Shown piece by piece: positions 5,940 through 37,948 of a stretch of 47,157 nt of DNA (positions are counted from its first letter, which is position 1; every line of letters starts with the position of its first letter). The position numbers were made by a program, and so were the translations under genes. The notes below the pieces were generated by a model, which did no database searches, was not told the DNA's origin, and was given only the letters and a program-made list of their open reading frames with translations. This DNA is from Nemertoderma westbladi (taxonomy: Eukaryota > Animalia > Xenacoelomorpha): positions 1 to 47,157 of the forward strand of contig JAUCBJ010005961.1 of the NCBI GenBank assembly GCA_032718475.1. Reading direction: 5' to 3'.

Positions 5940-6187
5940 GTTAGTGCTCTATTGGATATTATGTGGTGAATCTTATATTAGTTATAATAGGTATTTGAGG
6001 CGTAAGAATCGTTACCCTAGAGTAGGGGGGCTTTTAATTGATTCCTACGAAGTACTGAAATGAGTATTGAATTACACCCCATATGCCATGGGGTTTATCG
6101 AGAATACATGGGTGGGGTAATTAGCTCTTATTTGCCTCGATTTTCCCCTAGAGATGGTTGAATTTTGATTGCGTCTAAGCCGACCAA

Positions 6188-6262
6188 CCCCCCCCCCCCC
6201 CCTCCCCACAATCCCCCCACCCTCCCCACAATCCCCCCCCCCACAATCCCCCCCCCCTACCC
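6188..6262. repeat. C-rich low-complexity tract (G-quadruplex-capable on the minus strand)
   Basis: Runs of C separated by acaat or t. Confidence 0.7.
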
Positions 6263-6867
6263 TCACGCATCTGCATCCTGGCTCATTAACACCACTGCTC
6301 ATCGTTAGTCGGACCGATAATATTGTGTATATGTTGATGAATGCGCCCTTGTGAAGAATACCAGGTTTTCACTTTTAATTGGAAATTTATAAATGGAAAA
6401 TACTTTGTAATTGTCTAAATTTCTCCTCTAAGTGTTTTATAGCTTTATTCATTTATTATAACCTGTACGTACATAATATACTAATTCGTTTATTGTTTTG
6501 GTTAGATTACGCACTTCTGTAACCTGGGTTTTTGTGAAAACCTGATACCTTTCGGTTTCTTTCTTCTTCACATGGGGAAAAAAGCAAAGTGAAATATAAC
6601 AGCAGAAAGTCTGGTAAACGTGACTTAGACTTAAACATTAATTAGCCTTAATTAAAAAAAAACGAAATAGTAATTATTATGCCATATAATTACGATGCTA
6701 CAATATCATTATGAAATACGATAATTAATATGCAATATTTATTATGATGAAATCAGGTTGCTATTCCGATGCGATTATTGCATAATAAATAGTTTCTTAC
6801 AGCCAATGTATGAAATAATAACTTTATGGATTGAATAGTTATTGTGCAATGTCATAGGCTATTGGTT

Positions 6868-6927
6868 GTTGCCAAGCAACATCAGGTAATACCTACCTGT
6901 GCTACTTTAAGTAGGACTGACGGAAGT
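6868..6927. promoter_or_regulatory. Candidate RIOK3 promoter motifs: RFX X-box (6868-6880) and ETS site (6921-6927)
   Basis: GTTGCCAAGCAAC fits the X-box palindrome and CGGAAGT is the ETS core. Both lie ~750-800 bp upstream of the RIOK3 ATG. Motif match only. Confidence 0.4.
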
Positions 6928-7190
6928 TGAACATAAACTGAAATCGCTTTCCTTTCTACTTCTGTACCTATCCTCTACTCGGCCTGGTTCTGGTAGTTTT
7001 CAATTCTATATCTGCAGACTCACACTGCCATAAAGTTTTTTTTCGTTATTCATTGAATCCACCGGCAGGACAGGTACCGAGTAATACAGTACCGGTACAG
7101 CGGTAGCAGAATAGTGCTGTACATGGGTGCTTAGATTGTGGCTTTTATTGGTAACTGGAAAAGCAACGATCTTTTAAGCACCAGTTTAGA

Positions 7191-7278
7191 GGGTAAATCT
7201 TTTCGACCTACGCGTAGGCCTACGCGTAGCTACGCGTAGCTACGCGTAGGCCTACGCGTAGGTCGAAAAGATTTACCC
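7191..7278. mobile_element. 88-bp perfectly palindromic micro-MITE with 8-bp target-site duplication
   Basis: gggtaaatcttttcgacc-(tacgcgta x5 core)-ggtcgaaaagatttaccc is its own reverse complement. It is flanked by agtttaga at 7183-7190 and 7279-7286. Confidence 0.8.
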
Positions 7279-7672
7279 AGTTTAGACGTACTCCTCTACC
7301 GTTGCTGTATGATTACGATAATAAGCTTACTCATTTACCGGTAACTAGAATTTTAACTTTTCCGACATGCGTTAGCCCTTAGCGTATGACGGATAGCACA
7401 GTAGCAGGGTAGGCTACCAGGCTACTCCGTACTCAACCAGTTGCGAGTGCCCAGTCTGCCAGTACGCTTGCAGGGTTGCTCTGCGTTTTACACATGCAGA
7501 TATGTGATACATAGGCCTGTAGGCCTAACAATCATTAGCCTACCAATTCACAATTGCTGCATTATTGTTAGGCTGCTTGGCTTGGTACTAGATTTTAAAT
7601 AGGCCTAATTTATACAGTTATAGCCGCATTAATTGCATACGAAATCGTTCTGTGCTATACAATCCGACTACA

Positions 7673-9358
7673 ATGGAGTTGGAATCAGTAGTTTTAGTGT
7701 CTCCTCAACCTCAAGCCAACCCATGGCACCATACTGGAACTGGACCACCCAAATCCCCTCCCGCAACCTCGCTGACCGAGGTAATGAGCGAACAACTAGC
7801 AGCTAAACTATCGGAAGAAATTCCGGACAATACGGTGGCGGTGGGCGCGCAGAGCCGTGATTCACCCGAAACCGGTGCGAGTAATCGCAATCGGGAACTA
7901 CCGACGGAGAACGAGGCGAATAAACCGGATGAATCGACGGATAACGACCTGTTAGTGGCCCAGATGCTGCAGAACGAATTCGATAAAGAACACGACGAAC
8001 ATCTGCGCCGAGTTCAGAACGCTTATAACCGCAACTCCAAGATCTCGGTATCCTACGAGAAGTACAGGGCTGTTCGAGACGAAGCCGACTCTTCGGACCC
8101 AGAGGAAGAGGCGTTGGAGCGATGGAGGGTCTACGAGAAACCGGAGAAACCGATGCCTACCCCGAAACGGGGCTATTCTGGACGCGGTAAGGAGATGACG
8201 ACCAAGCACGACGCCGATGTCTGCGGCAGACGGAACGTGGGACGGATGGAACGCTTCCATCCTGGGTTCCGTTCCGGCGACGGGACCGGGGTCGATCTCA
8301 AGCTCCCGAACAACGTGTTCAACGCGCTGAAGCGACACGACGTGAAGGCGAGTAATCGTATGGCTCGACTCCACGAGAAGAAAGAGAACAGTACCAGCGA
8401 GTTGGCTATCGACGCGCGGACGCGGTTGATGTTGTACAAGTTGGTTAACTCGGGTTGGTTGGAGTCGATTAATGGATGCGTTAGTACCGGCAAGGAAGCC
8501 TGCGTCTACCATGGAGTCGGCGGCTCTGTGGAAGGCAAGGTTATCCCCGACGAGGTAGCCTTGAAGGTTTATAAGACGACCCTCAATGAGTTCAAGTGTC
8601 GCAGCGATTATATCCGCGACGATTACCGGTTTAAGGGACGTTTCCGCAAGCAGAATCCTCGGAAGGTGATACGGATGTGGGCAGAGAAAGAGATGCACAA
8701 CCTGACGAGGATGCGAGCCGTTGGGTTGAGGGTGCCTGAGGTCGTGTTGCTTAGGAAACACGTTTTGGTTATGGCCTTTATAGGGAGGGATCGAAGGCCT
8801 GCCCCACAGCTCAAGGACGCAGCTTTGGGATGCGCCGATATGGAGATCGCGTACGATCAGTGCGTCGAGATGATGTGTAGACTTTATAAGGAATGCAATC
8901 TCGTTCACGCTGATCTCTCAGAGTATAATATGTTGTGGTTCGATGAGTCGCTTTGGTTGATAGACGTGAGTCAGTCGGTTGAACCGACTCATCCATACGG
9001 CCTGCACTTCCTCTACAGGGACTGTCGCAATGTCAGCGGCTTCTTCTCCAGGGCTAAAGTCCATAATGTTCTCGACCCTATCGGCTTGTTTAATTTGGTT
9101 TCCGGAAGGAACATCTCATCACCAGAGGAACGGGACCTTATTTTACAGGTGGAACAGTTTGGAACAAAGAAGGAATTGATGACTGATTTAGAATTCGATT
9201 CCGCCGATAAAAACTATTCTTTTGATTTCTTCTTTAGTAAAGGCGAATCATTAGGGGATGTCCGTGATGTTGACGATGAATCTAGCTCTAGTGACGATGA
9301 ATTACCTTTGCGTGACAATGAATTACTATTGAGTGACCACGAGGATCATACAAACTGA
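7673..9358 (+). CDS. RIOK3: Serine/threonine-protein kinase RIO3, intronless CDS, 561 aa
   Basis: RIOK3-specific N-terminus (SLTEVMSEQLA, DLLVAQMLQNEFDKEHD, TTKHDADVCGRRN, LKLPNNVFNALK) plus RIO kinase motifs STGKEACVYH, KVYKTTLNEFK, LVHADLSEYNMLW and LIDVSQSVE. First ATG is at 7673. Confidence 0.95.
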   Translation: MELESVVLVSPQPQANPWHHTGTGPPKSPPATSLTEVMSEQLAAKLSEEIPDNTVAVGAQSRDSPETGASNRNRELPTENEANKPDESTDNDLLVAQMLQNEFDKEHDEHLRRVQNAYNRNSKISVSYEKYRAVRDEADSSDPEEEALERWRVYEKPEKPMPTPKRGYSGRGKEMTTKHDADVCGRRNVGRMERFHPGFRSGDGTGVDLKLPNNVFNALKRHDVKASNRMARLHEKKENSTSELAIDARTRLMLYKLVNSGWLESINGCVSTGKEACVYHGVGGSVEGKVIPDEVALKVYKTTLNEFKCRSDYIRDDYRFKGRFRKQNPRKVIRMWAEKEMHNLTRMRAVGLRVPEVVLLRKHVLVMAFIGRDRRPAPQLKDAALGCADMEIAYDQCVEMMCRLYKECNLVHADLSEYNMLWFDESLWLIDVSQSVEPTHPYGLHFLYRDCRNVSGFFSRAKVHNVLDPIGLFNLVSGRNISSPEERDLILQVEQFGTKKELMTDLEFDSADKNYSFDFFFSKGESLGDVRDVDDESSSSDDELPLRDNELLLSDHEDHTN

Positions 9359-10384
9359 TAGTAATGGTTGTAAAGATTTTAGTTGTATGTATTTAAATTG
9401 GGGAGTGTATGGGTTTTATTTTAATTTAATAATACTTAGTTCACTAACTGCTGTAACTGATATTATTGTGAATTTGACTCGAAAAAATAGCCACTAAGTA
9501 CTGGAGTCAAAATTATCACTTTGGCTGATGTATTGGATTAGACTAAGACTAACAACGGTGACGCGTGACGGTGGTATACGTACGGTTGTGTTCTTGTAAC
9601 ATCAGTTGCATTCAGTGCCGTAAAAGAAAAGGATGGCGGATGTGGTGTGCATGTACCACAGTGCTCATGGATACTCGTAATTTGGATATTTTGTTTTCCG
9701 ATTATATAGCGCGGTAGCTATTAGCCAGTTTATTTAACCCAAATCAACTCCAGTTGGAAACGGGATTCTATCCATACCAATTTGAAGAATAAGTCTAGTT
9801 CCTAAAAACATATAAACTGTATAGAGATTTTACCTTTGTGAGAAAATTTAAATATTACAATTTATGTTTCGGATATGTTGAGGTTATGTTATCGTTATAA
9901 ATCAGGGTAATTCATACATATTGTTGTACAGACACACTCACACTCACACACACCCCGTCAAAATAAATTTGCAATCAATCAAAGCCACATTTTTGGATTA
10001 TATATTTCAATGTTGATTTGTTTAATTGTGTTTATAATAAATTTAAAGGTTTGTAAGTTATTATTGTTGTTTTGAAGGTTTTCTACTAAGTCGAAAATGT
10101 TAGTTCGTTCGTCTTCGAATGAGCTTAAAGTTTGCAAACCTTTAAAATAAACTAGTATATCATTGACGCAATTTTTGATAGCCATCTTGGCAAAATTGAA
10201 AATTTGTTGGCGATTACCTATAATTTGAATTAAATACATTGTGGGGATATTCGGAATGAATAAGATTCACCTTGCGGTCTGTCGCTCATTAATTCCTTGA
10301 TAACGAGCGTTGCGCCAGTACTTGTTGAGGTCATAGTAAATGAGGAAAAGGGATGTTGAAGGGGGGCGGATACAAGGGGCATTA

Positions 10385-11425
10385 AATTGTACGCCATACG
10401 GCGGCCGGATCGAATAGAAAACATTTTTATGCGATCCGGTTGCCGTACGGCACTGTATACACCTTTTTGCATTGCGAAGGCCTATAATTATAATCTTATA
10501 ATGTAAAACAACAGTCCGAAATACTAGTGTTTGGTGGCCCATGAGTATCACACAAAAATACAAATTAAATTAAAAAAAAAACAAATAAAATTTAATTAAA
10601 AAACAAATAAAATTAAATTAAAAACAAATAAAATAAAATTAAATAACAAATAACAAATAAAATAAAATAAAATTAAAAAATGTAAAAAATTTATTTTAAA
10701 AATTTCATAAAAGTTAACAATAAATAAATAAATTAAATAGAAAAAAGATGATATTGTTTGTTGCTGTTGGTGACACATCAGTATCAATCCATGGAAATGT
10801 ATATCATTTTACCAGCCCATCAGAATCAATACCAATATCCGTAATTGGAAGTTATACTGATGGGCTGGTAAAATGATACATTTCCATGGATTGATACTGA
10901 TGTGCCACCAACAGCAACAATAGCAATGATACCGGTATACATGAGCTAGCTAGTAAATAAATCATCATCGGTATCACTTCAGCAAATAAATCATGTATTG
11001 GGTATTTTGGCTTAGCTGGGTGATATAAAGCGAGAATACATGATAAACATTTCTATGGATTTATACTGATGTGCCACCTGATGTGTATTTTTTTCATTTA
11101 TTACTTTTTCTTATTTTTTCTTCATTATTTTTATATTTAATTAATTAATATATTTTTTCTTTTATGAAATTTTTAAAGTAAATTTTTGACAATTTTTAAT
11201 TTAATTTAATTTAGTTGTTTTGTAATTTAATTTAATTTTATTTGTTTTTTAATCTAATTTTATTTTTTTTTTAATTTAATTTTAGTATTTCGGACTGTTG
11301 TTTTACATTATAAGATTATAATTATAGGCCTTCGCAATGCAAAAAGGTGTATACAGTGCCGTACGGCAACCGGATCGAATATAAATGTTTTCTATTCGAC
11401 CCGGCCGCCGTATGGCGTACAATTT
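10385..11425. repeat. ~1 kb foldback (nested inverted repeat)
   Basis: 10385-10527 is the near-perfect reverse complement of 11283-11425. A-rich 10560-10745 faces T-rich 11090-11282. An inner stem pairs 10757-10823 with 10856-10920. Confidence 0.9.
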
Positions 11426-11622
11426 TGTGGCATCTCGGACGTACGTTCACCGGTACAGTAAGCATCCGATTCCGATGCCTTAGGGTGGCCGTATACGTGG
11501 TCGTAAAATAACTGCAGATTATGTACGGAACCGCACGGCCTTGGATCAGGCCGTAGGTTGACCTCACGGCCGCCTTACGACGTTGTCTTACGGCTGTCGT
11601 ACGGCAGAGTATAAATGGGCCT
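11325..11622. mobile_element. Partial PIF/Harbinger-type MITE (one terminus visible)
   Basis: Ends in gagtataaatgggcct|tta, the same GGCCT+TWA terminus as the complete MITEs at 32965, 40135 and 40603. Rich in tacggc/gccgta subrepeats. Left end not found. Confidence 0.5.
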
Positions 11623-13004
11623 TTATTGTGCTGCTATTATATCGTGATTTGCTTCATCAGTAGAACATGTAAATAATAACACAAATGTTTTGCACAATGT
11701 TAGTGGATAATTTACATGTATTTTCAGGCAAATATTTTAAAATATATTATTAGAAGACCGTCAGGGCTTCTTGCTGTCAAAAAAAAACGCCTGTGTGTTT
11801 GTCTGTATGTTTGTGCACATTGATATTGGCTTGGAAGGGTAAGAAGTGCTCTACTTCATGGCCAACTATACAAAGAAATGTATCGATTATTTGGGTTCTT
11901 ATTTCGGTTATTAATTATTTAAGCGGGTGCTCTTGCTGTATAAAAATAGCACAGGTCGATTCGCCGTGTCCCATTCTCACAAAGTTTTTATTATATTCGA
12001 GTGTTTAATATAAAGATGTATGATTATTTATTGATTGACAATAAAATAGTGTATAAATATGTAACATTCCCTCACACAGCCTGAACTTTGCCTATGGCAG
12101 CGAATAGGGAAGGATTTTCTCTGTATCATAGCAACGTTGTATAATTATTTAACTCTAGCTAGCTGGGAAGACAGGTAGCAAGCTGGCCGGAGTGTCTCAG
12201 TAAATCCAATGGTTGGGGTGGGTTGTCTATTGAGAACTCCGAACTGGTCATGGCATTAATTCTGCTTTCTTCAAGGCTGCATGGAAGGTGGAAGAGGTTT
12301 ATATATTGATTGCGATTGATATTTGATTGGGGATTAGATTATCATTTAGTTTTTCGGTTTTGTTGTCTTATAGACGGTCTTCTTAAAGCCAGCTTGCTGG
12401 CTTTCTAGTATATTAACAATGTAGCAAGAACCCGTTGTAGTCTACCAAAAAAACAGACTGCATGTTGTGTGAATATCAGAGCGAACGACTTTCAATATCG
12501 CATACTAACAATCAATAAATATATCAATTTTTTTCATCACCAATCATGCATTAGATATAAGTTCTAAAGCTATTTCTTGATGTTGCAATACTGCAATGAT
12601 ATAATAAAATAACTTCGTATATTACAGTAATGATGGATTGCATTCAATGTTTCAATTCAATTCAACATCTTTCAATTACATATTGGGAAACATATGGATT
12701 ATCTTAGCACAAACTTGTACAAACAAACCCCAATCTATTATATGCAACTTTCCCATCATTATACATAATGCCAAATGTTAAGATAACCACAAAATGTTCC
12801 AGGCTACCTTTAAATAAAATGAATCGAAATTGTACGGTCATAAATGGCCGGGATAATTAACTCAGAATTTTATGCACAATATGTCGCACTATTTGCAATG
12901 ATATTTGTTTCAGTAGAAAGGGCTCAGTACAACCTACTGTACTTGATTATGTTAAATATTGACACTAACAGATATAACAATAAACATTCCCACAGTTTTT
13001 CTTT

Positions 13005-14678
13005 TTAACTTTCGATGAGCTGCAAAGTTTCACTGGTGTCTTTACCTTTTGGCGCGAATATGTTACCACGATGGCAGCGAAATATAATGAAATAACTAAT
13101 GGCTATGAGCGGAAGTGTGAGTCCGAAGATGGCTGCACCAACTGGAAATCCGGTGTATTCGACCAGGGGACCGGCTATAATCGGACCGATAAACAGCCCC
13201 AATGCGTCCGTCAGACTCCTTGAATAGGAGTAGATTGCAATGTTCTCGACAACTTCCTTCCATTGTAGTCGATGGAAACAAACCTTGTATAGGCACTCGA
13301 AGTAGGGGACAGCACAACTGCCATATCCAATGCCGAATATCGCAGTCCCAAAAAGGATTACAGAGATATCTTGTGGTATATGAAACAGCGGGAAAGGGCC
13401 TTGTAATAGCATACCAACGTAAATTATTAGCATCCCGCAAGCTATTATATAAAGTGGGTTTATTATCGGGAATTTCTGCATGACAACTCCCCAAATAAAA
13501 CTTGTAGTCACTGTGGTTAGGGGCGCTATTAGAAAGATGAGTCCAATCGTAGCTGGACCAAATTTAAACATTTCTAGATACAAAGCGAAAGTTGTTTCGT
13601 AAAATCCCAAGGATGCCAATACTAGGAACTCCATTGTAAAGGACATGAAACCAACTTTATCCTTCAATATGTCCAGAACAGTATATTTGGTTTCAGGTTT
13701 TGTTTCTGATTCAATGTTGGGACAAGTGGCAAAGAGATATATGGCTAGTAATACCTCCAAACTGCCGAACACTAGGAAAGGTGTTGTGTAATTTGATAGT
13801 TCATATATTACTCCACATATTGTTGGCCCCGTTAGCATTCCAAGGTTGAAGCTGTTGTACAGGAAACTCAGGGCTATAGTTCGTTCCTTCTGCAACAAAT
13901 TAATAAAAGTGACTAAATTTTACTACGCCAAACATCATCGACCTGTCAGTAATAATTATCATTAGTCCCAAGATCTTGGGCTATCCATACAGGCTTGCGA
14001 GTTGACAATTAACTTACTTTGAACAATATCGTCGTAATTCCATACATAGAAAGAGTGGCTGTCGCATAAAAGGAACCCTCTACGATACGGCAGATAAAAC
14101 ATAACACGATATAGGTGGTGCCACCTGGTGATAAATCTAGTAACCCGAACAGGGCAATGCAAACACCTAAAAAGTAAATAGAAATATATCACTGCAGTTT
14201 GAGTTGAGTTGAGATTGTCAATGCACTCCTGTGTCATTCAGGGTGTACAGATATTGTAGAAAATTAGCTGATATGGTTGTGTGTATGGATCGAACTCTTA
14301 ACATATACAGTTTATACACAGTGAGTTATTCTATACTTACTTACCTGAACCCATGAATCCGAGTGCTGCTGCGTTCTTAAGTCCCAAGCTCACGGCCACA
14401 CCACCCACCATGACATAGAATACAATCCTGCTACCGGCAAACACACCAAAAAGAATACCAACCAAACTTTCGTCGAAGCCTTTCTCAATAGCTCTTGGAG
14501 GAAAGAATGCAGCTGGAAGCGAATAGTTAACTGAAATTGTGAAAAACAGGGTACATAGAACTATGAGTGTTGTTATTCGATGCGTCATTACACGGATTAA
14601 TATAGATTTTATAGGCTGATTGATTTTAAGTTCTGAGTTATAAATAGTTTCTTTGGAAGTAACACGGCTATCACTCAT
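13005..14678 (-). CDS. SLC18B1-like MFS transporter, copy 1 (exons 14678-14345, 14166-14018, 13889-13005; 455 aa)
   Basis: GT-AG introns with compatible phases (1, then 0). Exon 1 has YSLPAAFFP..A..KG....VG..FG, exon 2 reads GVCIALFGLLDLSPGGTTYIVLCFICRIVEG, exon 3 has GMLTGPTICG.IY....YTTPF and FIGPIIAGPL. Multi-TM pattern of the SLC18/VMAT-related family. Confidence 0.85.
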
Positions 14679-15349
14679 CTTTTATTGATAATTCTTCTTT
14701 GCTTCAAATGGTGTGGAAGTGTCGCAGGCCTTATCACAAACTATTTATCGCGTTAATTAGGACAACATATGTTGAGGTAGGTAAAGTTATTTTCTTATCC
14801 TTTGCCGGCTGTAAGTACTGTACAAAACACGCAAGAGTAAGCGCAAGACATAAGTCCGCCTACATAGTACAAGTTACAAGTACAAAATTAATAAATTTGA
14901 ATATTATACATTGAATGAATTCGTTTTCCTGTTGTAGTTAATGACCCAGCCCATGAAATACCCTATCACTTGGAATCAATAATCAGCTGATTATCTGCAA
15001 ATCCTCCTCTGTGGTGAGTGGGTAGGTCGTTAATGCTGAGGGAACTAGTTGGGTCCAATTATTCCATGTTTGAGTCCAAGGAACTGATGATTATCGTGCA
15101 TTTACTTTATTGGCATTGGCTCTGTTTTAACGATAATTGTAATGATGACATATTGCAAGGGGAAGGAAAATCTTTTAACAGTGACAGTTGTTGGTGAATT
15201 TTATTGAAGGTATGGATTCAATAAAGATAATTAACGCAGTTACAATGATATTTCAACAAACAGGGCTTTATCAAATTGTATGAAGTCTACCAACTGACAG
15301 TGAAGTGAAGCCACGTACACTGCCCCACACTGCCTAACTACCTAATAAT

Positions 15350-16960
15350 AGTACTACTTCTATTTATCTATTGGTACATTGGTATGTCGTTGGTCTATAT
15401 ACCTCAGAACCAGTGCTCCAGACGTCCATGGGGTTACCAGAAAAGTGGATACGTTACCTTCGTTGTTACGATGGGTGGTATTCTACCATAATGCGTGATC
15501 ATATCATTATGCCTGGCATTTGCTTTGTCTCCAACTCATGTTTGTCCTGCCCTTGTCAGGGTTTGTCCTTACCTCCATATAAAATGGGTAAACGTTACCA
15601 AATAAACAATAAGAAACAAGTGATTGGAAACATATTTTAATTGAGAATCAACAGTTTGAGGATAAACATTCAGATGTATTAGCTTATCGGCAGGAAGATG
15701 GTATATGTATGTATAGGTGTGTGTAAGCGTGTAAGGGTAGGCGTCACATTTACCCCCGTATAAAAAAACCACACTTTCCACTGTGGCTCGAAAACATGTG
15801 ATCATCAGGTGATGGGGGATGTCTGATTTTCAGGTGGTTCGCCACTTCGGATAGACCCATGAATTTACCGCCGTTGCATTTGCTTTCCTAACTTTTATGT
15901 ATTTTCTGTGGCTCTCTATCCATGACCTAAGGTTCTGGAAATCGTCAACTTCCTTGGTGGATTATTATCGATTGTGGTCAGGCTTATATTAACATTACAA
16001 TCATTTATTTTGGTTTGACAATAGCACAACAGTAGCATTTATATGCAATCCAAGCTTCTTTGCAGTCATCTCCACTTTGTTCAGTAGAAGTTGTGCATCT
16101 GCTACTACTATTTATAATACTACTATTATAGGCGAATTGAAATGCTATGTCAACTTAATAACGAGTTTGTGCTGTCATATTGCAATCCACAATATGCATG
16201 CATGCTGCAATGCAGCTTGCATTAAGACACCTATCCTTCAGCGTCGTCAAGTGCTGGTCCGCCAGCCAAAGCAATGATATCATGCGAAGCAGAGGCGGAT
16301 TAGTTCAATTGACAAGCTTGGGGGATCAGTGACACAGCTCAAATGCTGTATGTTGCTTGGTGGGGATGTGTGCATTGTGAACCAGATGTGGCATTCTTGT
16401 CATCTTGTGAATGGTGCCATCCAGAGATTTGGCGTCCTCAGCAGTAATAGCTCAGCTTGGACTCATATATCTTGTTTGTGGTTGGTTGGCATTTCCTCCA
16501 CTAATATGAGCCAGGAATTATTATGTGCCGTAGTGAGATCCTCACTGTGCATGTGATAGCGTGTTGGATAGCAGGGCGATGTTATCCACAAAGTCTGTGT
16601 CTGTGTTTGCTTGTGCAGGATATCAGGTGCTTCTATGTCTTGTAGTGTGAACCAAATAATATCTTCTCCATTTGTGGCCATCTTCATTGCATAATCCAAC
16701 ACAATTATGAATAGCAATGGATCAAATGTATTGCCTTGCAGTACATCAGTAAGGATTGAGAATAAATCAGACCTGTCATCTGGATGTAGAGCATGTCTGA
16801 AATTCTGTGTCGCAGTACAAAATAACAATCAAATATCAGCAATGATTATTTTTGGTATTCCATAAGCTCTTAGGATTTCCAGCCTTTTACCACTATGGAT
16901 GGAGTCGAATGCGTTCTTGAAGTTAGAATTCATTCTTCCTTCTATCTTAATTGCAAGTAT
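15350..16960 (-). mobile_element. Degraded RTE-clade LINE, interrupted by a nested insertion (~16105-16556)
   Basis: Broken frames give FKNAFDSIH..K.LEILRAYGIP, VLQGNTFDPLLFIIVLDYAM and FRATVESVVFLYGG, with many frameshifts. Confidence 0.8.
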
Positions 16961-17179
16961 CTGAGTTGTTGTTGATTGATATATTTTGTCGGAATCCAAT
17001 TTGTCTCTTATGCAGTAGTAGAAAGTTATCACCTTATAAAAAGGTATATAATTCTCCTATATTATAAAACAACTCTTGCAATCTATAATTAATCTATAAT
17101 CCTATAATTGGCACATTTTTACACAATTGATATTATTTCTAATTAATTATTAATGATTAATAAGTATGATTATACGTTA

Positions 17180-17560
17180 TTATTATTAGTTTTATTTATT
17201 GAGAAGTCAGTACTGAGCAGCTATGTCATGGCCGCGCAGCCCCGCACCATCCCCGAAACAAAGTCAGTGCCAGCGCTGCGCCTACCTCCATGGAGGCACA
17301 GCAAACTGGACCGGAGGAGGGCGAATTGAAGTTGTTGATGACATCCCCCAGCACACATGCGAGGCCCCTCTTCAGCATTCCATCACGCTTAGAAACCAGT
17401 GCCTCTTTGATGTAGGTGATGAGTATCTGGGTCTCTCGGCACCAGACTCCATCCATTGTATCAACCAGTGGGGTGAATGGTTTCCTCCATTCCACACAGA
17501 CAGCGCTGTAGTGGCACAGTTTATTGCGGCAGCGCTCCTCTAGGATGGAGTTGGTCGAGC
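17180..17560 (-). mobile_element. 3' fragment of an RLE-type (CRE-like) non-LTR retrotransposon
   Basis: Minus ORF contains NKLCHYSAVCVEWRKPFTPLVDTMDGVWCRE, resembling the K..KY...C....FTPLV.S.DG..G.E end of CRE-clade endonuclease domains. It is followed by AATAAA and a (TAA)n tail. Confidence 0.55.
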
Positions 17561-17726
17561 GGTTTATATTATATTCGTTACATGAAATAGTTTCACTTTT
17601 GTAGTTTAGTAATAAAATCATTACTCGTAGTTTTTTTACTTATAGTTGCGCTCACAATGTAGTACATGTAATAATTACACATACAAATGTAGTGAAAATG
17701 TAAAGTTATGTACACAGTTTCTCTTT

Positions 17727-22433: not shown

Positions 22434-22461
22434 GATTCTACGTTATTTGAGTGCGCCCCTT

Positions 22462-22530
22462 GGCACAACTCTTCCGACCAGATAGGCACAACTCTTCCGA
22501 CCAGATAGGCACAACTCTTCCGACCAGATA
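22462..22530. repeat. 23-bp tandem repeat x3
   Basis: ggcacaactcttccgaccagata repeated three times exactly. Confidence 0.9.
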
Positions 22531-23204: not shown

Positions 23205-25246
23205 TTAACTTTCGATGAGCTGCAAGGTTTCACTGGTGTCTTTACCTTTTGGAGCTAATATGTTACCACGATGGCAGCGAAATATAATGAAATAACTAAT
23301 GGCTATGAGCGGAAGCGGGAGTCCGAAGATGGCTGCACCGACTGGAAATCCGGTGTATTCGACCAGGGGACCGGCTATAATCGGACCGAGAAACAGCCCA
23401 ACTGCGTCCGTCATTGTCATCGAATAGGAGTAGACGGCGGTGTTCTCGACAACTTCCTTCCATTGTAGTCGATGGAAACAAACTCTGTAGAGAGCCTCGA
23501 TATACGGGACGGCACAACTGCCATATCCAATGCCGAATATCGCAGTACCAAATAGGATTACTGAGATATCTTGTGGTATATGAAACAGCGGGAAAGGGCC
23601 TTGTAATAACATACCGGTGTAAAGAAACATCATACCACTAGTTATTATATAAAGTGGGTTTATTACCGGGAATTTTTGCATGACAACTCCCCAAATAAAA
23701 CTTGCAGTGACTGACGCCAGGGGCGCTATAAGAAAGATGAGTCCAATCACAGCGGGACCCAATTCAAACATCTCTAGATACAATGCGAAAGTTGTTTCGT
23801 AAAATCCCAAAGATGCCATTACTAAAAGCTGCATAGTGAAGGACATAAAACCAACTTTATCCTTCAATACGTCCATAACAGTATATTTGGTTTCAGGTTT
23901 TGTTTCTGATTCAATGTTGGGACAAGCGACTCGAAGATATATCGCTAGTAATACCTCCAAACTGCCGAACACTAGGAAAGGTGTTGTGTAATTTGATAGT
24001 TCATATATTACTCCACATATTGTTGGCCCAGTTAGCATTCCAAGATGTAGGCTGTTGTATATGCAACTCAGGGCTATAGTTCGTTCTTTCTGCAACAAAT
24101 GAAAAATAGTAATTGGCGCTAAATTAATAACGTGCCACTGTAACCTACTCCTTTCCCTAAATTGAGAATTCAATATTGCGGAGGGATATTAATTCGCCAA
24201 GATGGGATTTGCGTCCAGTCCAGTCCCACCCCCCTCCCCCTGTCTCCAGTCACCATCCTTATTTTCCATGTAGAAAGAATCATTCAATTCCAACTTATTA
24301 ATCGTATAAAGTATAATAATTTGATCAAATTGTTTTTTGCCCTTTTTAGCTAATTTGATCGCCTACAATACCCACCACTGAAAATAGTTTTGATGTATGT
24401 TGCACAGATCTGTATAGGTACCATGATTCATAATTCAATACGGTGCCTTCTTTATCTTTTCAATCAGAAATATAAATTTATAACGTTATAGTAATAGCTT
24501 CAAGCATGTAATAATAAACTTACTTTGAACAACGTTGTAGCGATTCCATACATCGAGAGAACGGCTGTCGCATAAAAGGAGCCCTCTACGATACGGCAGA
24601 TAAAACATAACACGATATAGGTGGTGCCACCTGGTGATAAATCTAGTAACCCGAACAGGGCAATGCAAACACCTAAAAAGTAAATAGAAATATATCACTG
24701 CAGTTTGAGTTGAGTTGAGATTGTCAATGCACTCCTGCGTCATTCAGGGTGTGTAGATATTTAAGAAAATGACATAATATGGTTCTGTGTAGGGATCGAA
24801 CTCTTCACCCATTCACACTGAATTTTCCCATACGTACCTGACCCTGCGAATCCGAGTGCCGCTGCGTTCTTCAGTCCCAAGCTCACGGCCACACCACCCA
24901 CCATGACATAGAATACAATCCTGCTACCGGCAAACACACCAAAAAGAACACCAACCAAACTTTCGTCGAAACCTTTCTCAACAGCTCTTGGAGGAAAGAA
25001 TGCGGCTGGTAGTGAATAGTTAACTGAAATTGTGAAATGCAGGGTACATAGCACTATGAGTATTGTTATTCGATGCGTCAGTGATCGTATTAATATTGAT
25101 TTTCTAGGCGGGTTGCTTTTAACTTCCAACAAGTTTTCAAATACATCTTTGGAAGTGCCACCGCCATCATTGTCATCTTTTATAGATAATTGTTTCTCTA
25201 CTTCATATATTTGGGCTGATAAATCGCAGGAATTATCACAAACCAT
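23205..25246 (-). CDS. SLC18B1-like MFS transporter, copy 3 (exons 25246-24838, 24672-24524, 24089-23205; 480 aa)
   Basis: Same intron positions (donors gtacgt and gtaagt, acceptors ttttag and ttgcag). Longer N-terminus from an upstream ATG. ORF intact. Confidence 0.85.
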
Positions 25247-27725: not shown

Positions 27726-28583
27726 ATGGATCCTGCCTTACTCAGGGAACACCAGGCGTTCACTAAGCGAGCGTTGTCGCTGCCTACGGTGGAACGTAGA
27801 CCGAAGAAGGAAGATGTTGTCATCGCTAAATCAACGTCTCAACCGCTCAAAAAGCGACCGGCGCAGAGCGGTTCTTTTTCTTTTAAAGTCAGTCAGGATC
27901 CGGACTATTACAAGTCGATGAAAGCCTCCAGTTCCTATAAGTTTAGCATACTCGCGAAAATCGTGAGTCACATGCGGAGTCGGCACAAACAGGGCGATTC
28001 GTACCCGTTGAACCTCGAGGAAATCCTGGACGAGACTCAGCAGGTTGAGCTACCGGTTAGGGTCAGACAGTGGCTACAGACCGAGGCCATGGTTAATAAC
28101 CCAAAACTCGAGGTATTGGAGGAAGATGGACAGACTAAATTTAAGTTTAAACCTCCGTTGCCTTGTAAGGATAGTAAGAGTTTGCGTAGACTCTTAGAGA
28201 AGTACGATATGCGAGGCAAGGGAGGGATCTTATACGACGATGTGGAAGAAAGTGTACCCAAGGTTGAGAAAGTAATGCGGTTATTAGGGGACTCTGTGGT
28301 TACTGTGCAGAGGAGCGGGGATAAAAAGAAAGTTCTCTTCTACAACGATAAGTCGTGCGATCTGTGTGTTTCCGATGAGGTTATCAGACTGTGGAGGTCG
28401 GCGACGGTAGACGCACTGGACGAGGGTTACATTACCGAATACCTCGAGAAACACGGACTCACAAGCATGCAAGATTCCCGGCCCAAGACCGCCCAGCCCA
28501 AACTCAAGAAGAAATCCTCCCGGAGGACTAATGTTAAGGTTACTAATGAGCATCTTAAGGACGTACTAGTTGACTATCAATGA
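27726..28583 (+). CDS. GTF2E2: General transcription factor IIE subunit 2 (TFIIE-beta), intronless CDS, 285 aa
   Basis: MDPALLREHQAFTKRALSLPTVE N-terminus, YKFSILAKIVSHMRSRHKQGDSYPLNLEEILDET, WLQTEAMVNNPKLE, DKKKVLFYNDKSC, LWRS and C-terminal NEHLKDVLVDY all match TFIIE-beta. AATAAA at 28634. Confidence 0.95.
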   Translation: MDPALLREHQAFTKRALSLPTVERRPKKEDVVIAKSTSQPLKKRPAQSGSFSFKVSQDPDYYKSMKASSSYKFSILAKIVSHMRSRHKQGDSYPLNLEEILDETQQVELPVRVRQWLQTEAMVNNPKLEVLEEDGQTKFKFKPPLPCKDSKSLRRLLEKYDMRGKGGILYDDVEESVPKVEKVMRLLGDSVVTVQRSGDKKKVLFYNDKSCDLCVSDEVIRLWRSATVDALDEGYITEYLEKHGLTSMQDSRPKTAQPKLKKKSSRRTNVKVTNEHLKDVLVDYQ

Positions 28584-28663
28584 CGACCAACCAGCAATCC
28601 GGTCCCTATTAGAGTCTATATATCAGTACTACCAATAAATGCAGTCGAGTGCTAATGAATATA

Positions 28664-29819: not shown

Positions 29820-30683
29820 ATGTGGCTAATTGATTGGCTCACGCGTATTGTATACGTGCGTCTGATTGGTTGGGACCTACCAGAGGAAGCCCCCAGCTCC
29901 CAGTTATCCTGGGCCTGGTTCCTCCCCATTCTCGTCGCCATCTACCTTCTCGCCTACATACTAGCCGCCATCATTCTCTACGTTGTCTGCGCCTACTTCC
30001 CTCTCCGATTAAACTTTACGATTAAACGAATCCCCGGCACTGCGTTGGTTATCGTAGCTCATCCCGACGACGAAGTAATGTTCTTCGGTCCTACACTCCA
30101 TGGGCTGCGAGATGCCGGCTGGCAGGTTCGTTTAATCTGCGTAACTACGGGTGACTTCTACGGCGAAGGGGCGACGCGCGTAAAGGAGTTTAATCGCTCG
30201 TGGCTCGCGATGGGCTTCCCGGCGAAATCGGCTGCGATAATCGACCACCGACAGCTCCCGGACGATCCCGGCACAAAGTGGGACGTCGACGTTCTAACCG
30301 CTAATATAAAGTACCACGTCGACGAAATCGTTCCGGATGTCGTCGTTACGTTCGATCGGCGCGGGGTATCGGGACACGCCAATCACGTCTCGCTCCACGA
30401 CGCGGTGGTTCGGTTGCAACGCGGGTTGGAGTTACCGCGACATTGCACCGCTTACAGACTCACCACCGTTAATCTCTCCCGCAAATACCGCTGGTTCTTC
30501 GACATATTGCTATCGGTAGCGGACTGCAAGGCCTACAATCAGCAACTGTTTGTTTCGCCTCCCGGCTCAACAGTTCGCACGCAACGTGCCATGCTGCTCT
30601 ATAAGAGTCAAATGGTTTGGTTTCGTTGGCTGTATATCGCGTTCTCTCGGTATATGTACATTAATAGCTTGGAGATGATATAA
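29820..30683 (+). CDS. PIGL: N-acetylglucosaminyl-phosphatidylinositol de-N-acetylase, intronless CDS, 287 aa
   Basis: N-terminal TM segment, AHPDDEVMFFGPT, LPDDP...W, VTFDRRGVSGHANH, KSQMVWFRWLYIAFSRYMYINSL. Strong acceptor tttgattttctcag at 29774, upstream of the ATG. Confidence 0.95.
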   Translation: MWLIDWLTRIVYVRLIGWDLPEEAPSSQLSWAWFLPILVAIYLLAYILAAIILYVVCAYFPLRLNFTIKRIPGTALVIVAHPDDEVMFFGPTLHGLRDAGWQVRLICVTTGDFYGEGATRVKEFNRSWLAMGFPAKSAAIIDHRQLPDDPGTKWDVDVLTANIKYHVDEIVPDVVVTFDRRGVSGHANHVSLHDAVVRLQRGLELPRHCTAYRLTTVNLSRKYRWFFDILLSVADCKAYNQQLFVSPPGSTVRTQRAMLLYKSQMVWFRWLYIAFSRYMYINSLEMI

Positions 30684-31697: not shown

Positions 31698-32961
31698 CCC
31701 TATTACCACTGGGGTGTTTAGACCATTAGCAGCACTGGCGGGGGTCGATTCGGCCCCCCACTGTATTTTTGTAATCATCCAATAAAATCCTACGAAATTT
31801 GGGCTGTAGGTGAAAAAATTATCGAAGAACATTTTCAAATCCAAAAAAATGAAAATTTCATAAGGTGGGTATAATAATTTTCATGAAAAATAGAAGTAGT
31901 CCCAGGACAAAATATACATTTTTTTGATATTCTAAAAACTGATAGTGTGGCATTGTTGGCTAGCATTAGTAGGTTTTTCACTACGCTGAATCGAATGTGA
32001 TTATATTCCATTTCCTAAAATTGAACTGGATGCTATTTTTCGTGCACCTAAGAAGTGGGCGTGGCACTTCAAATTTTGAAAAATACGATATTCGGAAAAT
32101 ACCCCCATCTTTTGATTTCAACGCGTTTTTATAGGTTTTCTGGACCGCTGAATCGATTGAAAATATTATCGAAGCCTGAAGACTTAGTGGTTCGGCATTT
32201 TTGGTGCACCAAAATTAGGGAGTGGCACTTATTCAAATTTTGAAAAAGTACCACGCCCTAATTGTGGTGTACCAATAATGACGTACCACTAAGACTTGAA
32301 GCTTCAATATTACTTTCAATCGATCAGCGGTCCAGATAACCTATAAAAATGGGTTGAAATGAAAACCTTGTGGTATTTTCTGAATATCGTAATTTTGAAA
32401 ATTTGAAGTAAGCCTACTTGCCACGCCCTAATTTTGGTGCACCAAAAATGATGTACCACTAAGAATTGAGTCTTCTATATTACTTTCAATCGATTAAGCG
32501 GGCCAGAAAACCCATAAAAATGCGTTGAAATCAAAACTTCGGAGTATTTAACGAATATTGCAATTTTGAAAATTTGAAGTGCCACGCCCTAATTTTAGTG
32601 CACCAAAAATGACGTACCACTTCCCTTACATACTTATATAGAGTAGTAGAGTGCTCCATACGAATCAGAATCAATAAAAAAAAGCCCCAACATAAAGAAT
32701 TACTAACTCACAAATGACCTTGTAAAATTCGAAAATTTCAAAAAAAATTCTGCTGGGGACCAAATTTTGAGGTGGCACCCACATCGAAAAGTTGAAATCT
32801 AATTGCAACGCCGTTTTTTGCAAAAGATGCGCCATTAAATTTGACTAATTCTCGTAAAAAATTGGGCTGGTACATAATGTGGTTGCATAGATACAGCAAT
32901 TAAAAACTAGGAAGGGGCCGATCCCCCCCCCCCCCCCCCCCCCCCCCCAGTGGTAATAGGG
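31698..32961. mobile_element. Non-autonomous piggyBac-like DNA transposon
   Basis: TTAA|ccctattaccactgggg ... ccccagtggtaataggg|TTAA (17-bp TIR, TTAA duplication). Internal ~165-bp unit in inverted and tandem copies at ~32055-32620. Confidence 0.8.
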
Positions 32962-32964
32962 TTA

Positions 32965-33321
32965 AGGCCTGTTTACACGTGGCAACTTTAGAGCAACTTT
33001 CTCGGCAACTTGTAGAGCAACCCAGGTTGCCGATCAAGTTTCTCCGTGTAAACACGTAAAAAAGATGCCGCAAAAGTTGCTCAACTTTTACGGCAACTTG
33101 AAGGAATTAGCGTTGGCGAATTAAAGCGGACTAATCAAATTAAATTATCAAAAACTAGCTAGTAGATAAAATGACCCACTATTTTACAGTCAAACTAGCC
33201 AAGTTGCTCTAAAAGTTGCCGGTCAAGTTGCTGGTCAAGTTGCCACGTGTAAACAGCGATTAAATTAAGTTGCTCCAAAAAAAGTTGACGAGATAGTTGC
33301 TCTAAACGTGTAAACAGGCCT
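32965..33321. mobile_element. PIF/Harbinger-type MITE, family A copy 1
   Basis: TIR aggcctgtttacacgt, TTA duplication, gcaactt/aagttgc subrepeats. Near-identical to 40603-40974. Confidence 0.88.
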
Positions 33322-33664
33322 TTAGGGTTTTAAGCGCAACCAAGTTTTTTTTATTGTTAACTAGACAAGTATTAACTAATATTAAATAGATACATTAAAT
33401 ATATACAATTTTTTTCTGACCTGTCATGTAGAATAGCATCTTAGATAAATAAAAGAGTTGTTTGAAAATTTTAGTTAAGTTTAGGTGCCACCCAGTCACT
33501 TAAAATAATTAGTTTAATTGCACTATACTTTGCCTCACAATATATTTGGCAAATAATTATTTTAAACTCGCCTCATTAAAATTTTGTATCCACGCGCCAA
33601 CAAAGGCAACAATTATCGAACTTGTGAATTTCTAGTATCAACTGATTGGATTGTCATGGAATTA

Positions 33665-33678: not shown

Positions 33679-33830
33679 GGATATACACAACACAACCTGG
33701 TAGTTGTTACCGTTGTCAAACTGTTGGTAATTATTTTTCCAAGCAGCTAGAGTGAAGTAGTAGTAGGCAGCAGTTGGGCGGTTTTGAGTGAAATACTTTT
33801 AATTCACTGTAATAATTCTGGTATATCAAA

Positions 33831-36722
33831 ATGCACGAGAGTGAAGCGTTGGAGATGAAAGGGATCCGCACAATGTTCGGTGCGTTTCGCGAGCGGAATA
33901 TCGCCTTCGTTGTTGATACTTCAGGGTCAATGTATCTCACAATAAGTGTAGTCAAGGAACACATATTAGAAGCGTTGTTACAACGATCCTATAAGGAGAA
34001 AGATACGATGTTCAACATAATAGAGTTCTCATCCGACGTTAAATCCTGGTCGGATCGAATGGTCCGGTGTACTCCGCACACAGTAACGTCAGCCGCCCCG
34101 TGGCTCAAGAAGCTAACAACACATACCGGCCCCTCCAATATGTTAGGCGCCTTGATGACTGCGTTCTCCGACCAAGACACAGACGCCGTTTACCTAGTAA
34201 CAGACGGTTTACCTGGGGAGAATTCCCTCGATATACGTCGCCACGCGGGTATTGCCTCCCAGGGCAGACCCATTCACGCCTTCTACTTGGTTCATGGCGG
34301 AAAGATAGATTCGTCGGCTCAGGAATTTTTAGTGAGCCTTGCTGTTGAGACGGGAGGTAGTCTCACGGCTATAGTCTTAACCTTTGATGGGGCTGTAGAG
34401 AAGGCAGAACATATTTACACAGCCGCAAGGTATTTAGATACTTTGGATCCTCTCATTGTTCAACCACAAGCTGCTGTTGATCCTTACAAAGCTTCTACCA
34501 TCACCACCCGTCTGGATGATAACCCTTACGTTGCGGGCGGGCCTCTAATGGAGGATATATACTCGGACTATATGATGCCTCCATATAACATACGTGGCCG
34601 TGCCTTGTATCCCGGTGTACTGCCCGCGCACGCATGGCGTGCGGAACGCCCATACCTAAAGCGTTGGTTGGAGGATGAGGCTGGTCTGTCTGAGTTAACT
34701 CCAACAGCTGGCGCGCTAATCCAAGGTGCTAAAGTGCTGGCTAGACGTGAGACCGATGGGTATTTCTACAAAGCGATTATTTGCAGCAGAGCCTCGGAAA
34801 ATAAATTCCTTGTTGAATTCGACGACGATTTAAAATCTCGTAGTTCTGGGAAATCGGAACATTTCAAAGTTCAGGACACCGTAATTGCTGATATTATCTC
34901 GCACGTTGATGCTTTGCGTCATCCTATCAACGAAGGTGATACTGTATTAGCGCCGTGTGAGAAGGGTGGTGCGCGGTACGCACCTGGGATAGTGGTTACA
35001 GGTAAGGAGCAACGCGGTGAGTATGAGCATGTGGAAGCAGATCGTATAACTGTCGCCTTTACTAACGGGAAGACTGCAGATGTTAACCACGGTGTAGCCG
35101 TTAGAATCCCTTATGCTCAGTACCAACGTGTCAAAGAAGAATTACAATTACCATACGCGGCAAGACGCGGTCTCATTTCCAAGCCGGGGTACCCGGAAGA
35201 CGCTTATGAAACGGTGAAGAAGATTGACAGACTACCTACAGTGGTGGATGTACCTGAATTAGAGCGATTGGTTCCTAAAGTTAGTTACCCGAGGGTACCA
35301 CATTATTATCCATATAGCTACCCACCTTTGTATAGCCCTTACTACTACCCTCCTTACCCACCCCACTACCATCACCATCCGACCTACATTGTCCCTGAAC
35401 GCGAAACCTTTGTGAAAGCTAGCGACATCAATGCCGCGTCGTTAACCGCAAAGGAAAAGTCGAAACAATATGACGCTGACTTTATAGAAAGTGTCGGAAT
35501 GACTAAAGATGAACTCAATGATAAAGTTATGAGTCAAGTAACAGATGAAGAACTAAGGCTTCAGGATGAGGGTAAAGAAGCTGATGATATTTTGGACTAC
35601 CTCCATGAACCTGCGACAAAGACGGTAGGGGTAGGAACCGATTCCAGCCTCTTTTATCGACATATGAAGAACCGCATACCAGAGGAGCGGCCTCCCTGGA
35701 GGTACTGGCGTCTATACAGCGCCCCTCCGCGGCACTACGCGCAACCGCGTGCTATCAAGGGGTCGTACCATCATCCCGGAGCACCAGAGGACCCTGTGGA
35801 ACCGGTTGAGGAGGCCATCGACGACGATGTTGGGGATGATCCAGTGGAGGTGCCACCCGATGCTCCAATACAGCCTCCTTCGACCTCAGTCGAAAACGGT
35901 GTCGATGCCGAGAATTGTTACCGATGTATCAAAGAAAGGGAGACCTTTGATTCGGGGTTCCCAGGCGGATATGTGAACACAGACGGGACGTTTAATCGCG
36001 TCGACTACTATAGAACAGCTACCGAAGATAGTAAGAAGGATCATTTGCACGATATATTGAAGCACGATTACAAACCGAGTAAGGTGCCGAAATGGCGGAG
36101 GTTTGGAGCCCCCCCTCTTACGGCTGATCAGTTGGAACAACAAAACTTCGATATTCGTCGACAAAAAGTTCTAGAACGAAATAAAGAATGGCAGGCCCAG
36201 GTTGATGAGGCTGGTAAACTGCAGCAGGAGAGAGATGAACACCATAGAGGGCGGATGAGGAAATATTTAGATTTCGAAATCGCCAGAGAGAAATACAATC
36301 GGGAGAAAATTAGTTCAGCTGAGGAGGGGAAGCGAGCAGTTTCCGCGTCATTGGCGGATCGGTGGCGGGATAAAATGGAGCAAGAAGCGGCGCGGATGGA
36401 GGGAAGAGCTGAAGCTGCGAGGGATCGTCTAAGGGGATACAAGGACTGGGAGCAGATGCGTGTCGAGGGGAACAAACGGATGCAGGAGGAGGCGAGAGCT
36501 GCCAGACAGTCCAAAGTACGGGACTACTGGAACCGGCGTAGAGACGAGGTGGAGGAGAGGGGATATCAGCATCTAAACCGGGATAAATGGCGTCGAGATC
36601 AGATAATACAGACTCGGGAACATTTCCGCGACCTCGAAACTATCAACCAGGAACTCAAACAAATCGGACAGCATTCTAGAGACCAACGGATGGGCATATA
36701 TCGATCTACCGTGCTCCCATGA
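33831..36722 (+). CDS. VWA domain + DUF4537-like (VWA3B/C11orf16-related) protein with Pro/Tyr-rich region and C-terminal coiled coil, intronless CDS, 963 aa
   Basis: MIDAS DTSGS in IAFVVDTSGSM and AVYLVTDGLP (VWA3-type). GAKVLARRETDGYFYKAII and INEGDTVLAP......YAPGIV resemble the tandem Tudor-like DUF4537 region. E/R/K/Q-rich tail. Confidence 0.8.
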   Translation: MHESEALEMKGIRTMFGAFRERNIAFVVDTSGSMYLTISVVKEHILEALLQRSYKEKDTMFNIIEFSSDVKSWSDRMVRCTPHTVTSAAPWLKKLTTHTGPSNMLGALMTAFSDQDTDAVYLVTDGLPGENSLDIRRHAGIASQGRPIHAFYLVHGGKIDSSAQEFLVSLAVETGGSLTAIVLTFDGAVEKAEHIYTAARYLDTLDPLIVQPQAAVDPYKASTITTRLDDNPYVAGGPLMEDIYSDYMMPPYNIRGRALYPGVLPAHAWRAERPYLKRWLEDEAGLSELTPTAGALIQGAKVLARRETDGYFYKAIICSRASENKFLVEFDDDLKSRSSGKSEHFKVQDTVIADIISHVDALRHPINEGDTVLAPCEKGGARYAPGIVVTGKEQRGEYEHVEADRITVAFTNGKTADVNHGVAVRIPYAQYQRVKEELQLPYAARRGLISKPGYPEDAYETVKKIDRLPTVVDVPELERLVPKVSYPRVPHYYPYSYPPLYSPYYYPPYPPHYHHHPTYIVPERETFVKASDINAASLTAKEKSKQYDADFIESVGMTKDELNDKVMSQVTDEELRLQDEGKEADDILDYLHEPATKTVGVGTDSSLFYRHMKNRIPEERPPWRYWRLYSAPPRHYAQPRAIKGSYHHPGAPEDPVEPVEEAIDDDVGDDPVEVPPDAPIQPPSTSVENGVDAENCYRCIKERETFDSGFPGGYVNTDGTFNRVDYYRTATEDSKKDHLHDILKHDYKPSKVPKWRRFGAPPLTADQLEQQNFDIRRQKVLERNKEWQAQVDEAGKLQQERDEHHRGRMRKYLDFEIAREKYNREKISSAEEGKRAVSASLADRWRDKMEQEAARMEGRAEAARDRLRGYKDWEQMRVEGNKRMQEEARAARQSKVRDYWNRRRDEVEERGYQHLNRDKWRRDQIIQTREHFRDLETINQELKQIGQHSRDQRMGIYRSTVLP

Positions 36723-37948
36723 TCTTAATCGGGTAGTGTTGGTAGCAACTACCATTAATTACGATTATTTTCTAGCATTTAACAATTATAAACATGTTCT
36801 CTCTACAACATTAATGAATTATACTGTACTGTGTTTTTATATTCCTCAAAATTGTATTATGCCTTACTTATTTATGTTCGTGCTTTCTTGTGACTATATT
36901 TTTGTAAATATTTTTTACTGACAGCAATGAATGACTTAAAGAAAATTCTAATGTTATATGATTAGTAACCTTTTTGAATAACTTTACTTCATGGCTATTT
37001 ATCTCGTAGTATTCACTATATTTTACACTACAAGTCGTTTTATAGATATGAGCCCTATGGTACACTATGAAGTACGTAAGGAGAAGTCATTGGTGAATGT
37101 GAAACGCGAATCACCGAATGTCCTCTCTCTTTGCAGTTACCTATATGGCAGGGAGGTTTACAACGGTACAACCCTTATTGCCAATATAGAGTACTCTAAT
37201 TATTCAACCATTAAGTGTTCCTCTATTCTGCAGAAGCCAGATACACCACTGTGTGGGATATGAGATTTGTTTCTTAGAATTAACCTAAGAATTTTATGAC
37301 AGCTCTCTAACACTGTGCTCGAAATCACGACCTTCCTGTTGGAATCATGCGATGTAGTCAACGTCAACCGAACAATCTGTAGTTCGAAACTTGAAGCATT
37401 ACTTGACGACGGGAGATGTATTATTAACGCATTGAATCAATATGTTAACGTATCAATCAATGTATCAAACAAAACTACTCGTAATCCTGCCTTCTTGTAG
37501 GAGGAATACGTCGTGTTCATGCCACAGATGATAAAGGATGAGATAATCTTCCCTTGAATGTCATATATCGTCAATTACGTGTCTATAAAGTCATATCATT
37601 ATGCAACCTAATAATTGAGAGTAAAATGAATCTTTTTCGAGTACGGTCGTCGTCTCCTTCAGCCCAAGAAAATGGAACATTTATGGTCTCTAGGTCACGT
37701 GATAACATACATTATCATTTTTTGAAAGTAGAACGGTTCTACCATTTTTTATCAGACGGGATATCTGCACGATAATGTTGCGGTTGGTTTTCTAACAAAA
37801 AGAATAAACCATATTCAGGAACACCGATTACATGATTTGGTACCGTTTGGTATAGCGTTGACACCTTAGATAGACGATATCCCTGCTCTTTTTCAGGATG
37901 ACTTTTATTTTTATTCTGTTTTGTTTAATAGTTGTTTTATTTTTGTAG

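Follow-up and report, generated by a model that had tools for sequence, protein, structure and literature searches.

The window analysed here, a stretch of 47,157 nucleotides from the xenacoelomorph Nemertoderma westbladi (assembly GCA_032718475.1, contig JAUCBJ010005961.1), contains three exons of a gene for the dynein light intermediate chain (DLIC). The simplest reading of the sequence is that seven intact genes are situated between exons B and C of this one DLIC gene. In the reading that we favor, to which a probability of about 0.7 is assigned, the gap would be one ordinary spliceosomal intron that is old in position, has grown by the acquisition of genes and repeats, and is taken out in a single cis-splicing event. 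Each nested gene would have a promoter and a poly(A) site of its own. One gene with one long intron is preferred because the intron position is conserved and because a second long, gene-bearing intron is adjacent.

Exons and reading frame of the DLIC host gene

All DLIC features are on the + strand. Exon A (1067–1300) is an internal exon of phase 1 to 1 with AG and GT ends and an open join, which corresponds to positions 71–148 of the Pfam DLIC model. It is followed by intron A-B (1301–5775; 4,475 bp, GT..AG), which consists mostly of a 44-bp tandem array. Exon B (5776–5939; phase 1 to 0, Pfam DLIC 148–208) ends with PLVVVAHK, and exon C (37949–38178; phase 0 to 2, Pfam DLIC 206–279, E 3.5e-31) starts with SDAMDSLE and is followed by GTAAGT. 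The putative intron B-C between them (5940–37948; 32,009 bp, GT..AG, phase 0) has the donor GTTAGT at the 5939 boundary and a TAG acceptor behind a pyrimidine-rich tract. A further putative intron, C-D (38179–47157), continues past the end of the window.

When the three exons are joined, they form a single frame without stop codons, and the three pieces are successive parts of the Pfam DLIC model and likewise of coral, fish, insect, and nematode proteins. Neither this animal nor a near relative is represented by a spliced DLIC protein in the protein collection, where the closest match has 61% identity. In all 87 homologues of more than 400 aa (120 were fetched), the two columns of the junction, K and the one after it, adjoin without an intervening residue. 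Exons B and C are thus consecutive in 87 of 87 cases, with no piece of DLIC between them. A search with the full DLIC profile against all six-frame stretches of at least 12 aa in the window retrieved the three exon pieces and nothing else. The original prediction that the protein breaks off after VVVAHK at a phase 0 GTTAGT donor and resumes at 37949 without the loss of a residue was therefore borne out. It had also named the possibility that exons B and C belong to two DLIC paralogues, and this is not supported, as no residue is duplicated or missing. Its claim of a single DLIC intron stands as the simplest reading, in agreement with the GT..AG ends, the shared position, and the adjacent gene-bearing intron, while the removal of the gap as one intron is still an expectation.

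About 85 N-terminal residues are placed upstream of the window, and no N-terminal exon was found within it. The next conserved DLIC block after exon C was also absent from the window (best E 0.32 in a profile search). As a control, six held-out homologues scored 5e-10 to 3.5e-20 with the same C-terminal profile. The absence of this block implies that the putative intron C-D is at least 8,979 bp long. The three introns in a row would measure 4.5 kb, 32 kb, and 9 kb or more, and the window is rich in repeats. Tandem arrays of 44-base units (about 1720–5070) and 27-base units (about 43660–44570) fill much of the flanking DLIC introns.

Age of the intron position

Two homologous open reading frames (ORFs), P0035 and P0091, contain read-through inserts of 22 and 21 residues, respectively, exactly at the exon B-C boundary. 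Both inserts begin with V and end with Q, as would be the case for a GT..AG intron read in frame, and in a third ORF, P0069, homology starts after a Q at the same boundary. The best full-length matches of all three ORFs are insect-like (74–95%). The inserts therefore indicate that an intron of about 63–66 bases is present at this position in insect-like animals. It is likely, judging from these alignments, that DLIC intron B-C occupies an old position and that its 32 kb are an expansion of it.

The 3′ boundary of exon C is likewise shared, as 18 of 119 homologues stop not more than six residues away from it. The annotation of P0007, a DLIC of 305 aa from the glass sponge Oopsacas minuta, stops at this boundary, and the O. 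minuta gene model may also be split by a long or gene-bearing intron.

Genes within the 32-kb interval

Four genes in the gap are on the DLIC strand and have intronless coding sequences. RIOK3 (7673–9358, + strand, 561 aa) has human RIO3 as its best match among solved structures (E 3e-159, versus 7e-66 for RIO1), and no close representative was found in the protein collection. GTF2E2 (TFIIE beta; 27726–28583, + strand, 285 aa) matched with 100% query cover, and its closest protein match has 52% identity. It is followed by a PIG-L family de-N-acetylase gene (29820–30683, + strand, 287 aa; Pfam PIG-L E 1.3e-23), which from its sequence is likely PIGL. The fourth gene (33831–36722, + strand, 963 aa) encodes a C11orf16-like protein with VWA and DUF4537 domains, which has full-length matches, the closest with 42% identity. 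A tree of the VWA protein was built over residues 1–520 from 24 rows, with 23 of the 39 hits and no ctenophore among them. In it, the window sequence formed a long branch at an open fork that lies outside both the spiralians and the cnidarians. Of five proteins of the window, none had an identical entry in the protein collection. We take RIOK3, GTF2E2, and PIG-L to be housekeeping genes of general function, as is presumed from their families.

The other three genes are MFS/SLC18B1-like transporters on the opposite strand, each with two GT-AG introns and an open frame. Copy 1 (13005–14678, 455 aa) has exons 14678–14345, 14166–14018, and 13889–13005; copy 2 (17727–20326, 456 aa) has exons 20326–19990, 18970–18822, and 18611–17727; and copy 3 (23205–25246, 480 aa) has exons 25246–24838, 24672–24524, and 24089–23205. 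The sole solved relative found was SLC18B1. Pairwise, the copies have protein identities of 87–88%, dS values of 0.14–0.22, and dN/dS ratios of 0.31–0.44.

All seven nested frames are thus open and have family matches, and dN/dS is below 0.5 among the paralogues, in accordance with the original prediction of seven complete genes in the gap. The coordinates also confirm its count of four sense genes (RIOK3, GTF2E2, PIG-L, and VWA) out of seven; these four lack coding introns, and the spliced transporters are all antisense. Together, the nested coding sequences amount to 10,482 bases, or 32.7% of the gap, and the genes are spaced by 1.2–3.6 kb. Further genes were not found in the gap: none of 26 other ORFs reached the Pfam cut-off, there was no tRNA, and two Rfam matches were both far under the cut-offs.

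An eighth nested gene, which had been overlooked in the original prediction, is located in the putative DLIC intron C-D. It encodes a rhodopsin-family GPCR (41329–42987, - strand, 552 aa, intronless) with a Pfam 7tm_1 match above the cut-off (E 6.9e-08). Its C-terminal tail is long and charged, and no close family was found for it.

Several types of repeats are interspersed. Palindromic or paired repeats of the type of small DNA transposons are present at 7191–7278, 10758–10920, 32035–32449, 32964–33322, and 40602–40975. Decayed related fragments of one high-copy repeat family occur at 18–518, 15752–16605, 19182–19657, and 22202–22360; this family presumably resembles a LINE.

Read evidence on the exon B side

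Four public runs, X1 to X4, contain the region, and their reads were compared over positions 5100–25000 only. This stretch is the exon B side of the gap, with RIOK3 and the transporter genes. The contigs of X1, X2, and X3 behave as DNA. None of the four runs is labelled as RNA, but X4 behaves like it and was treated as such, since both GT-AG introns of transporter copy 3 are missing from one of its contigs. In X1 and X2, DNA contigs continue across the exon B donor and enter the gap by 47 bases in one of the two samples and by 231 in the other. One X1 contig covers 6655–10457 with the exception of a 106-base piece. Depths of 15–36 were obtained for the eight X2 pieces listed between 5228 and 22815. 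The depth in X1 and X3 is uneven, and many short high-copy repeats break the contigs. One X1 contig lacks 7173–7278, which suggests an insertion polymorphism just upstream of RIOK3.

RNA-type contigs were found on three of the four nested genes in the compared stretch, i.e., RIOK3 and transporter copies 2 and 3. The RIOK3 contigs of X4 (7564–8675, 8721–9375, and 9378–10154) start 109 bases before the ATG and end three bases after a candidate poly(A) signal, AATAAA at 10146–10151 (+ strand). This is a weak indication of a poly(A) site, as contigs cannot show RNA ends. Another X4 contig (17068–17751) lies at the 3′ end of transporter copy 2. Copy 3 is covered and spliced, and for the intact copy 1 X4 cover is absent over 13068–14395, i.e., over most of its coding sequence, which says nothing about its expression. 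As the transporter genes are antisense, they cannot share the DLIC transcript.

Proposed mode of expression and points that weigh against it

If the gap is one intron, a single cis-splice from 5939 to 37949 would remove all 32,009 bp, and each inner gene would be transcribed independently. The intron would have grown by several arrivals, which brought in five unrelated families, and the transporter would later have been triplicated in tandem. Genes on the host strand would probably be tolerated because intronless coding sequences offer no donor-acceptor pair for their inclusion as DLIC exons. The DLIC polymerase would have to read past the nested poly(A) signals, presumably with a protection of the type described for U1 against intronic polyadenylation (PMC3325483); the price would be that some DLIC transcripts end up truncated.

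In the 1,500 bases downstream of the VWA stop codon, AATAAA or ATTAAA occurs only once, at 37803–37808 (+ strand), some 145 bases ahead of the acceptor of exon C. VWA 3′-end processing and DLIC splicing may compete near 37803.

Several observations weigh against this proposal or against the notion that the arrangement has been tuned. Donor-like GTRAG motifs are not depleted on the DLIC strand of the gap (35 versus 45), and neither is AATAAA (53 versus 48). Neither motif has a strand bias, and the host polymerase would have to pass about 50 AATAAA hexamers. The sequence therefore bears no mark of selection against either mis-splicing or a premature end of transcription. Similarly, donors were not depleted in the four same-strand coding sequences in comparison with 300 synonymous shuffles. 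Ratchet points for recursive splicing with at least 10 of 14 pyrimidines were not found in the gap; a lone YAG-GTAAG at 35002 is within the VWA coding sequence and has 5 of 14 pyrimidines. End-to-end complementarity of the gap was also not found. Furthermore, no run of eight or more A follows RIOK3, GTF2E2, PIG-L, or VWA. Retroposition is therefore not established as their origin, and a single block insertion or a genome-wide loss of introns fits equally well.

The reads contribute additional points of this kind. Among the listed contigs, none spans the gap, and 6170–6655 is unbridged. No RNA contig that joins exon B to exon C is among the listed pieces, and the eight X4 pieces listed all lie off exon B; the X4 depth bin with this exon also takes in a repeat and is unreadable. 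Lastly, in the mouse H13/Mcts2 pair, transcription of the nested gene is described to end the host transcript early (PMC13309782), and four active same-strand genes would therefore be costly for DLIC.

Alternative explanations

A broader possibility is that the DLIC locus exemplifies a lineage-wide organization, in which most genes have lost their introns and a large part of all genes, including those of general function, is arranged in series on either strand within the few strongly expanded introns of the genes that are still multi-exon. The host pre-mRNA would then cross several live poly(A) sites, be joined in trans, or serve as a precursor of the inner genes. We regard this as rather unlikely.

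The last of these variants can also be considered for the DLIC gene alone. In an operon-like mode, the DLIC pre-mRNA would be the precursor of the four same-strand genes, and trans-splicing of a spliced leader to acceptors ahead of their start codons would release them. Pyrimidine-rich AG sites are present just before the ATG of GTF2E2 (27692), PIG-L (29774 and 29798), and VWA (33746), and leaders occur together with heavy nesting in Hormiphora and Aphrocallistes, according to the respective genome reports (PMC8527503, PMC10282587). However, AG sites are common in AT-rich DNA, no spliced-leader RNA family was matched in the window, and the X4 RIOK3 contig that starts at 7564 is collinear with the genome over five AG sites (7571–7623) with one unaligned letter and no visible leader. 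We consider the operon-like mode very improbable.

Split genes that are joined by trans-splicing include the dynein heavy chain of Giardia and mod(mdg4) of the fly, and complementary stretches in the two intron halves are a feature of such genes. The 5′ half of DLIC could accordingly end at a poly(A) site in the gap and be trans-spliced to exon C on a separate transcript, e.g., a VWA read-through transcript. The poly(A) signal that is probably in use 4.2 kb past exon B, on the DLIC strand, would fit, as would the lone signal after VWA, because read-through at this site would carry exon C. In contrast, the complementarity between 5940–7500 and 36723–37948 was not better than chance (19 bases at 89%, E 0.37), and the halves share the strand and are in the right order, so that cis-splicing explains the arrangement without an added step. 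We hold trans-splicing to be very improbable.

An assembly error, with exons B and C close to one another in the real genome or with fewer genes between them, is judged to be no more probable than trans-splicing. The lack of a gap-spanning contig among those listed, the breakage of contigs at repeats, and the uneven depth in X1 and X3 would be compatible with it. Nevertheless, the window does not contain any N, two samples confirm the sequence just past exon B, the listed X2 pieces have an even depth, and the protein identities of 87–88% mark the transporter copies as real paralogues. In addition, one random misjoin would not supply the next exon of the same gene in order and in frame, and insertion of a block would need two misjoins. 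Least probable of all is a dead DLIC locus, or two paralogue fragments, at which an ordinary gene block has landed while another copy works: the lack of an RNA contig on a DLIC exon among those listed and a gene spacing that resembles an ordinary gene-dense segment would fit, but the three exons are open, the splice signals are intact at shared positions, no residue is duplicated or missing, and two paralogues would each need their missing exons past the window, i.e., still longer gene-bearing introns.

Comparison with known nested genes

The nesting of genes as such is already known, as is the usual lack of introns in nested genes on the strand of the host. In the ctenophore Hormiphora californensis, 2,357 nested genes in 1,654 hosts were reported, including a host with four genes (PMC8527503). 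As in the DLIC gene, many of them are on the host strand. The mean is about 1.4 per host, compared with seven in one putative intron and an eighth in the next in N. westbladi, and the ctenophore cases are backed by full-length cDNA, whereas the DLIC host splice is an expectation from the genomic sequence. In the glass sponge Aphrocallistes vastus, 2,432 genes (12.4%) are described as nested and 12,409 of 19,578 transcripts as single-exon, and its authors consider about 10% of exonic bases to be normal across phyla (PMC10282587). Intron-poor genes are nested within others in both animals, but the introns of the sponge are short, in contrast to the long, repeat-rich DLIC introns.

About 6% of the fly genes are nested (PMC3786989). 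An intron of Drosophila dunce contains Sgs4 and four ng genes (PMC10835880), and thus several genes in an intron of an unrelated host, as in DLIC. The dunce genes are, however, short, related, and glue-like, whereas those of DLIC come from five conserved families without relation to one another, and a general transcription factor is among them. For Drosophila, it was reported that 72.5% of the same-strand nested genes are single-exon, compared with 37.4% on the opposite strand, which was read as selection against mis-splicing (PMC3814207). According to the same study, the hosts are conserved and broadly expressed, whereas the nested genes evolve fast, are narrowly expressed and testis-biased, and are on the opposite strand in 71% of the cases. 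The conserved hosts and the mostly single-exon same-strand genes resemble the situation in DLIC. In contrast to the fly nested genes, RIOK3, GTF2E2, and PIG-L belong to conserved families, presumably of general function.

When the GPCR is included, the single-exon share around DLIC is 4/4 on the same strand and 1/4 on the opposite strand. At the fly rate, all four same-strand genes would be intronless with a probability of 0.28, and the three spliced genes belong to a single family. The pattern is therefore consistent with the fly rule, but is not a test of it. The same-strand share of four of seven is not significant, with P 0.11 at the fly rate; when the three paralogues are counted once, P is 0.026, or 0.061 with the GPCR added. 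In mammals, nested pairs are reported to have a slight strand bias only, and tissue specificity is higher among the nested genes (PMC11694760). In the mouse H13/Mcts2 pair, as in DLIC, elongation of the host transcript has to get past a nested gene that is active. However, it concerns one nested gene under the control of imprinted methylation, whereas DLIC has four same-strand genes in series and no known switch.

The assumption in the original prediction that the arrangement is unusual thus needs to be narrowed. Heavy nesting across whole genomes is reported for several animals, the mammalian strand bias is slight, and the share of four of seven is not significant. What is unusual is the load, i.e., five unrelated families, together with three housekeeping-type genes on the host strand. 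In the literature consulted, there was no report of an intron in which five conserved families without relation to one another are united and a general transcription factor is encoded on the strand of the host, although the supplements to the Hormiphora and Aphrocallistes genomes may list introns that are equally full. Nesting in a DLIC gene or in Xenoturbella was not reported in this literature either, and the word "nested" does not occur in the available text of the Xenoturbella and Nemertoderma genome papers (PMC11521371, PMC10565955).

If the DLIC locus is the only one of its kind, it is an extreme but ordinary example of nesting. If the splice is confirmed, it would be a natural test case for how polymerase and spliceosome pass four same-strand genes that each have a start and a poly(A) signal of their own, an arrangement that, as the mouse work implies, should terminate the host. 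Moreover, gene finders that forbid nesting (PMC10282587) would split or drop such a DLIC gene, and this could lead to false gene losses in poorly sampled animals.

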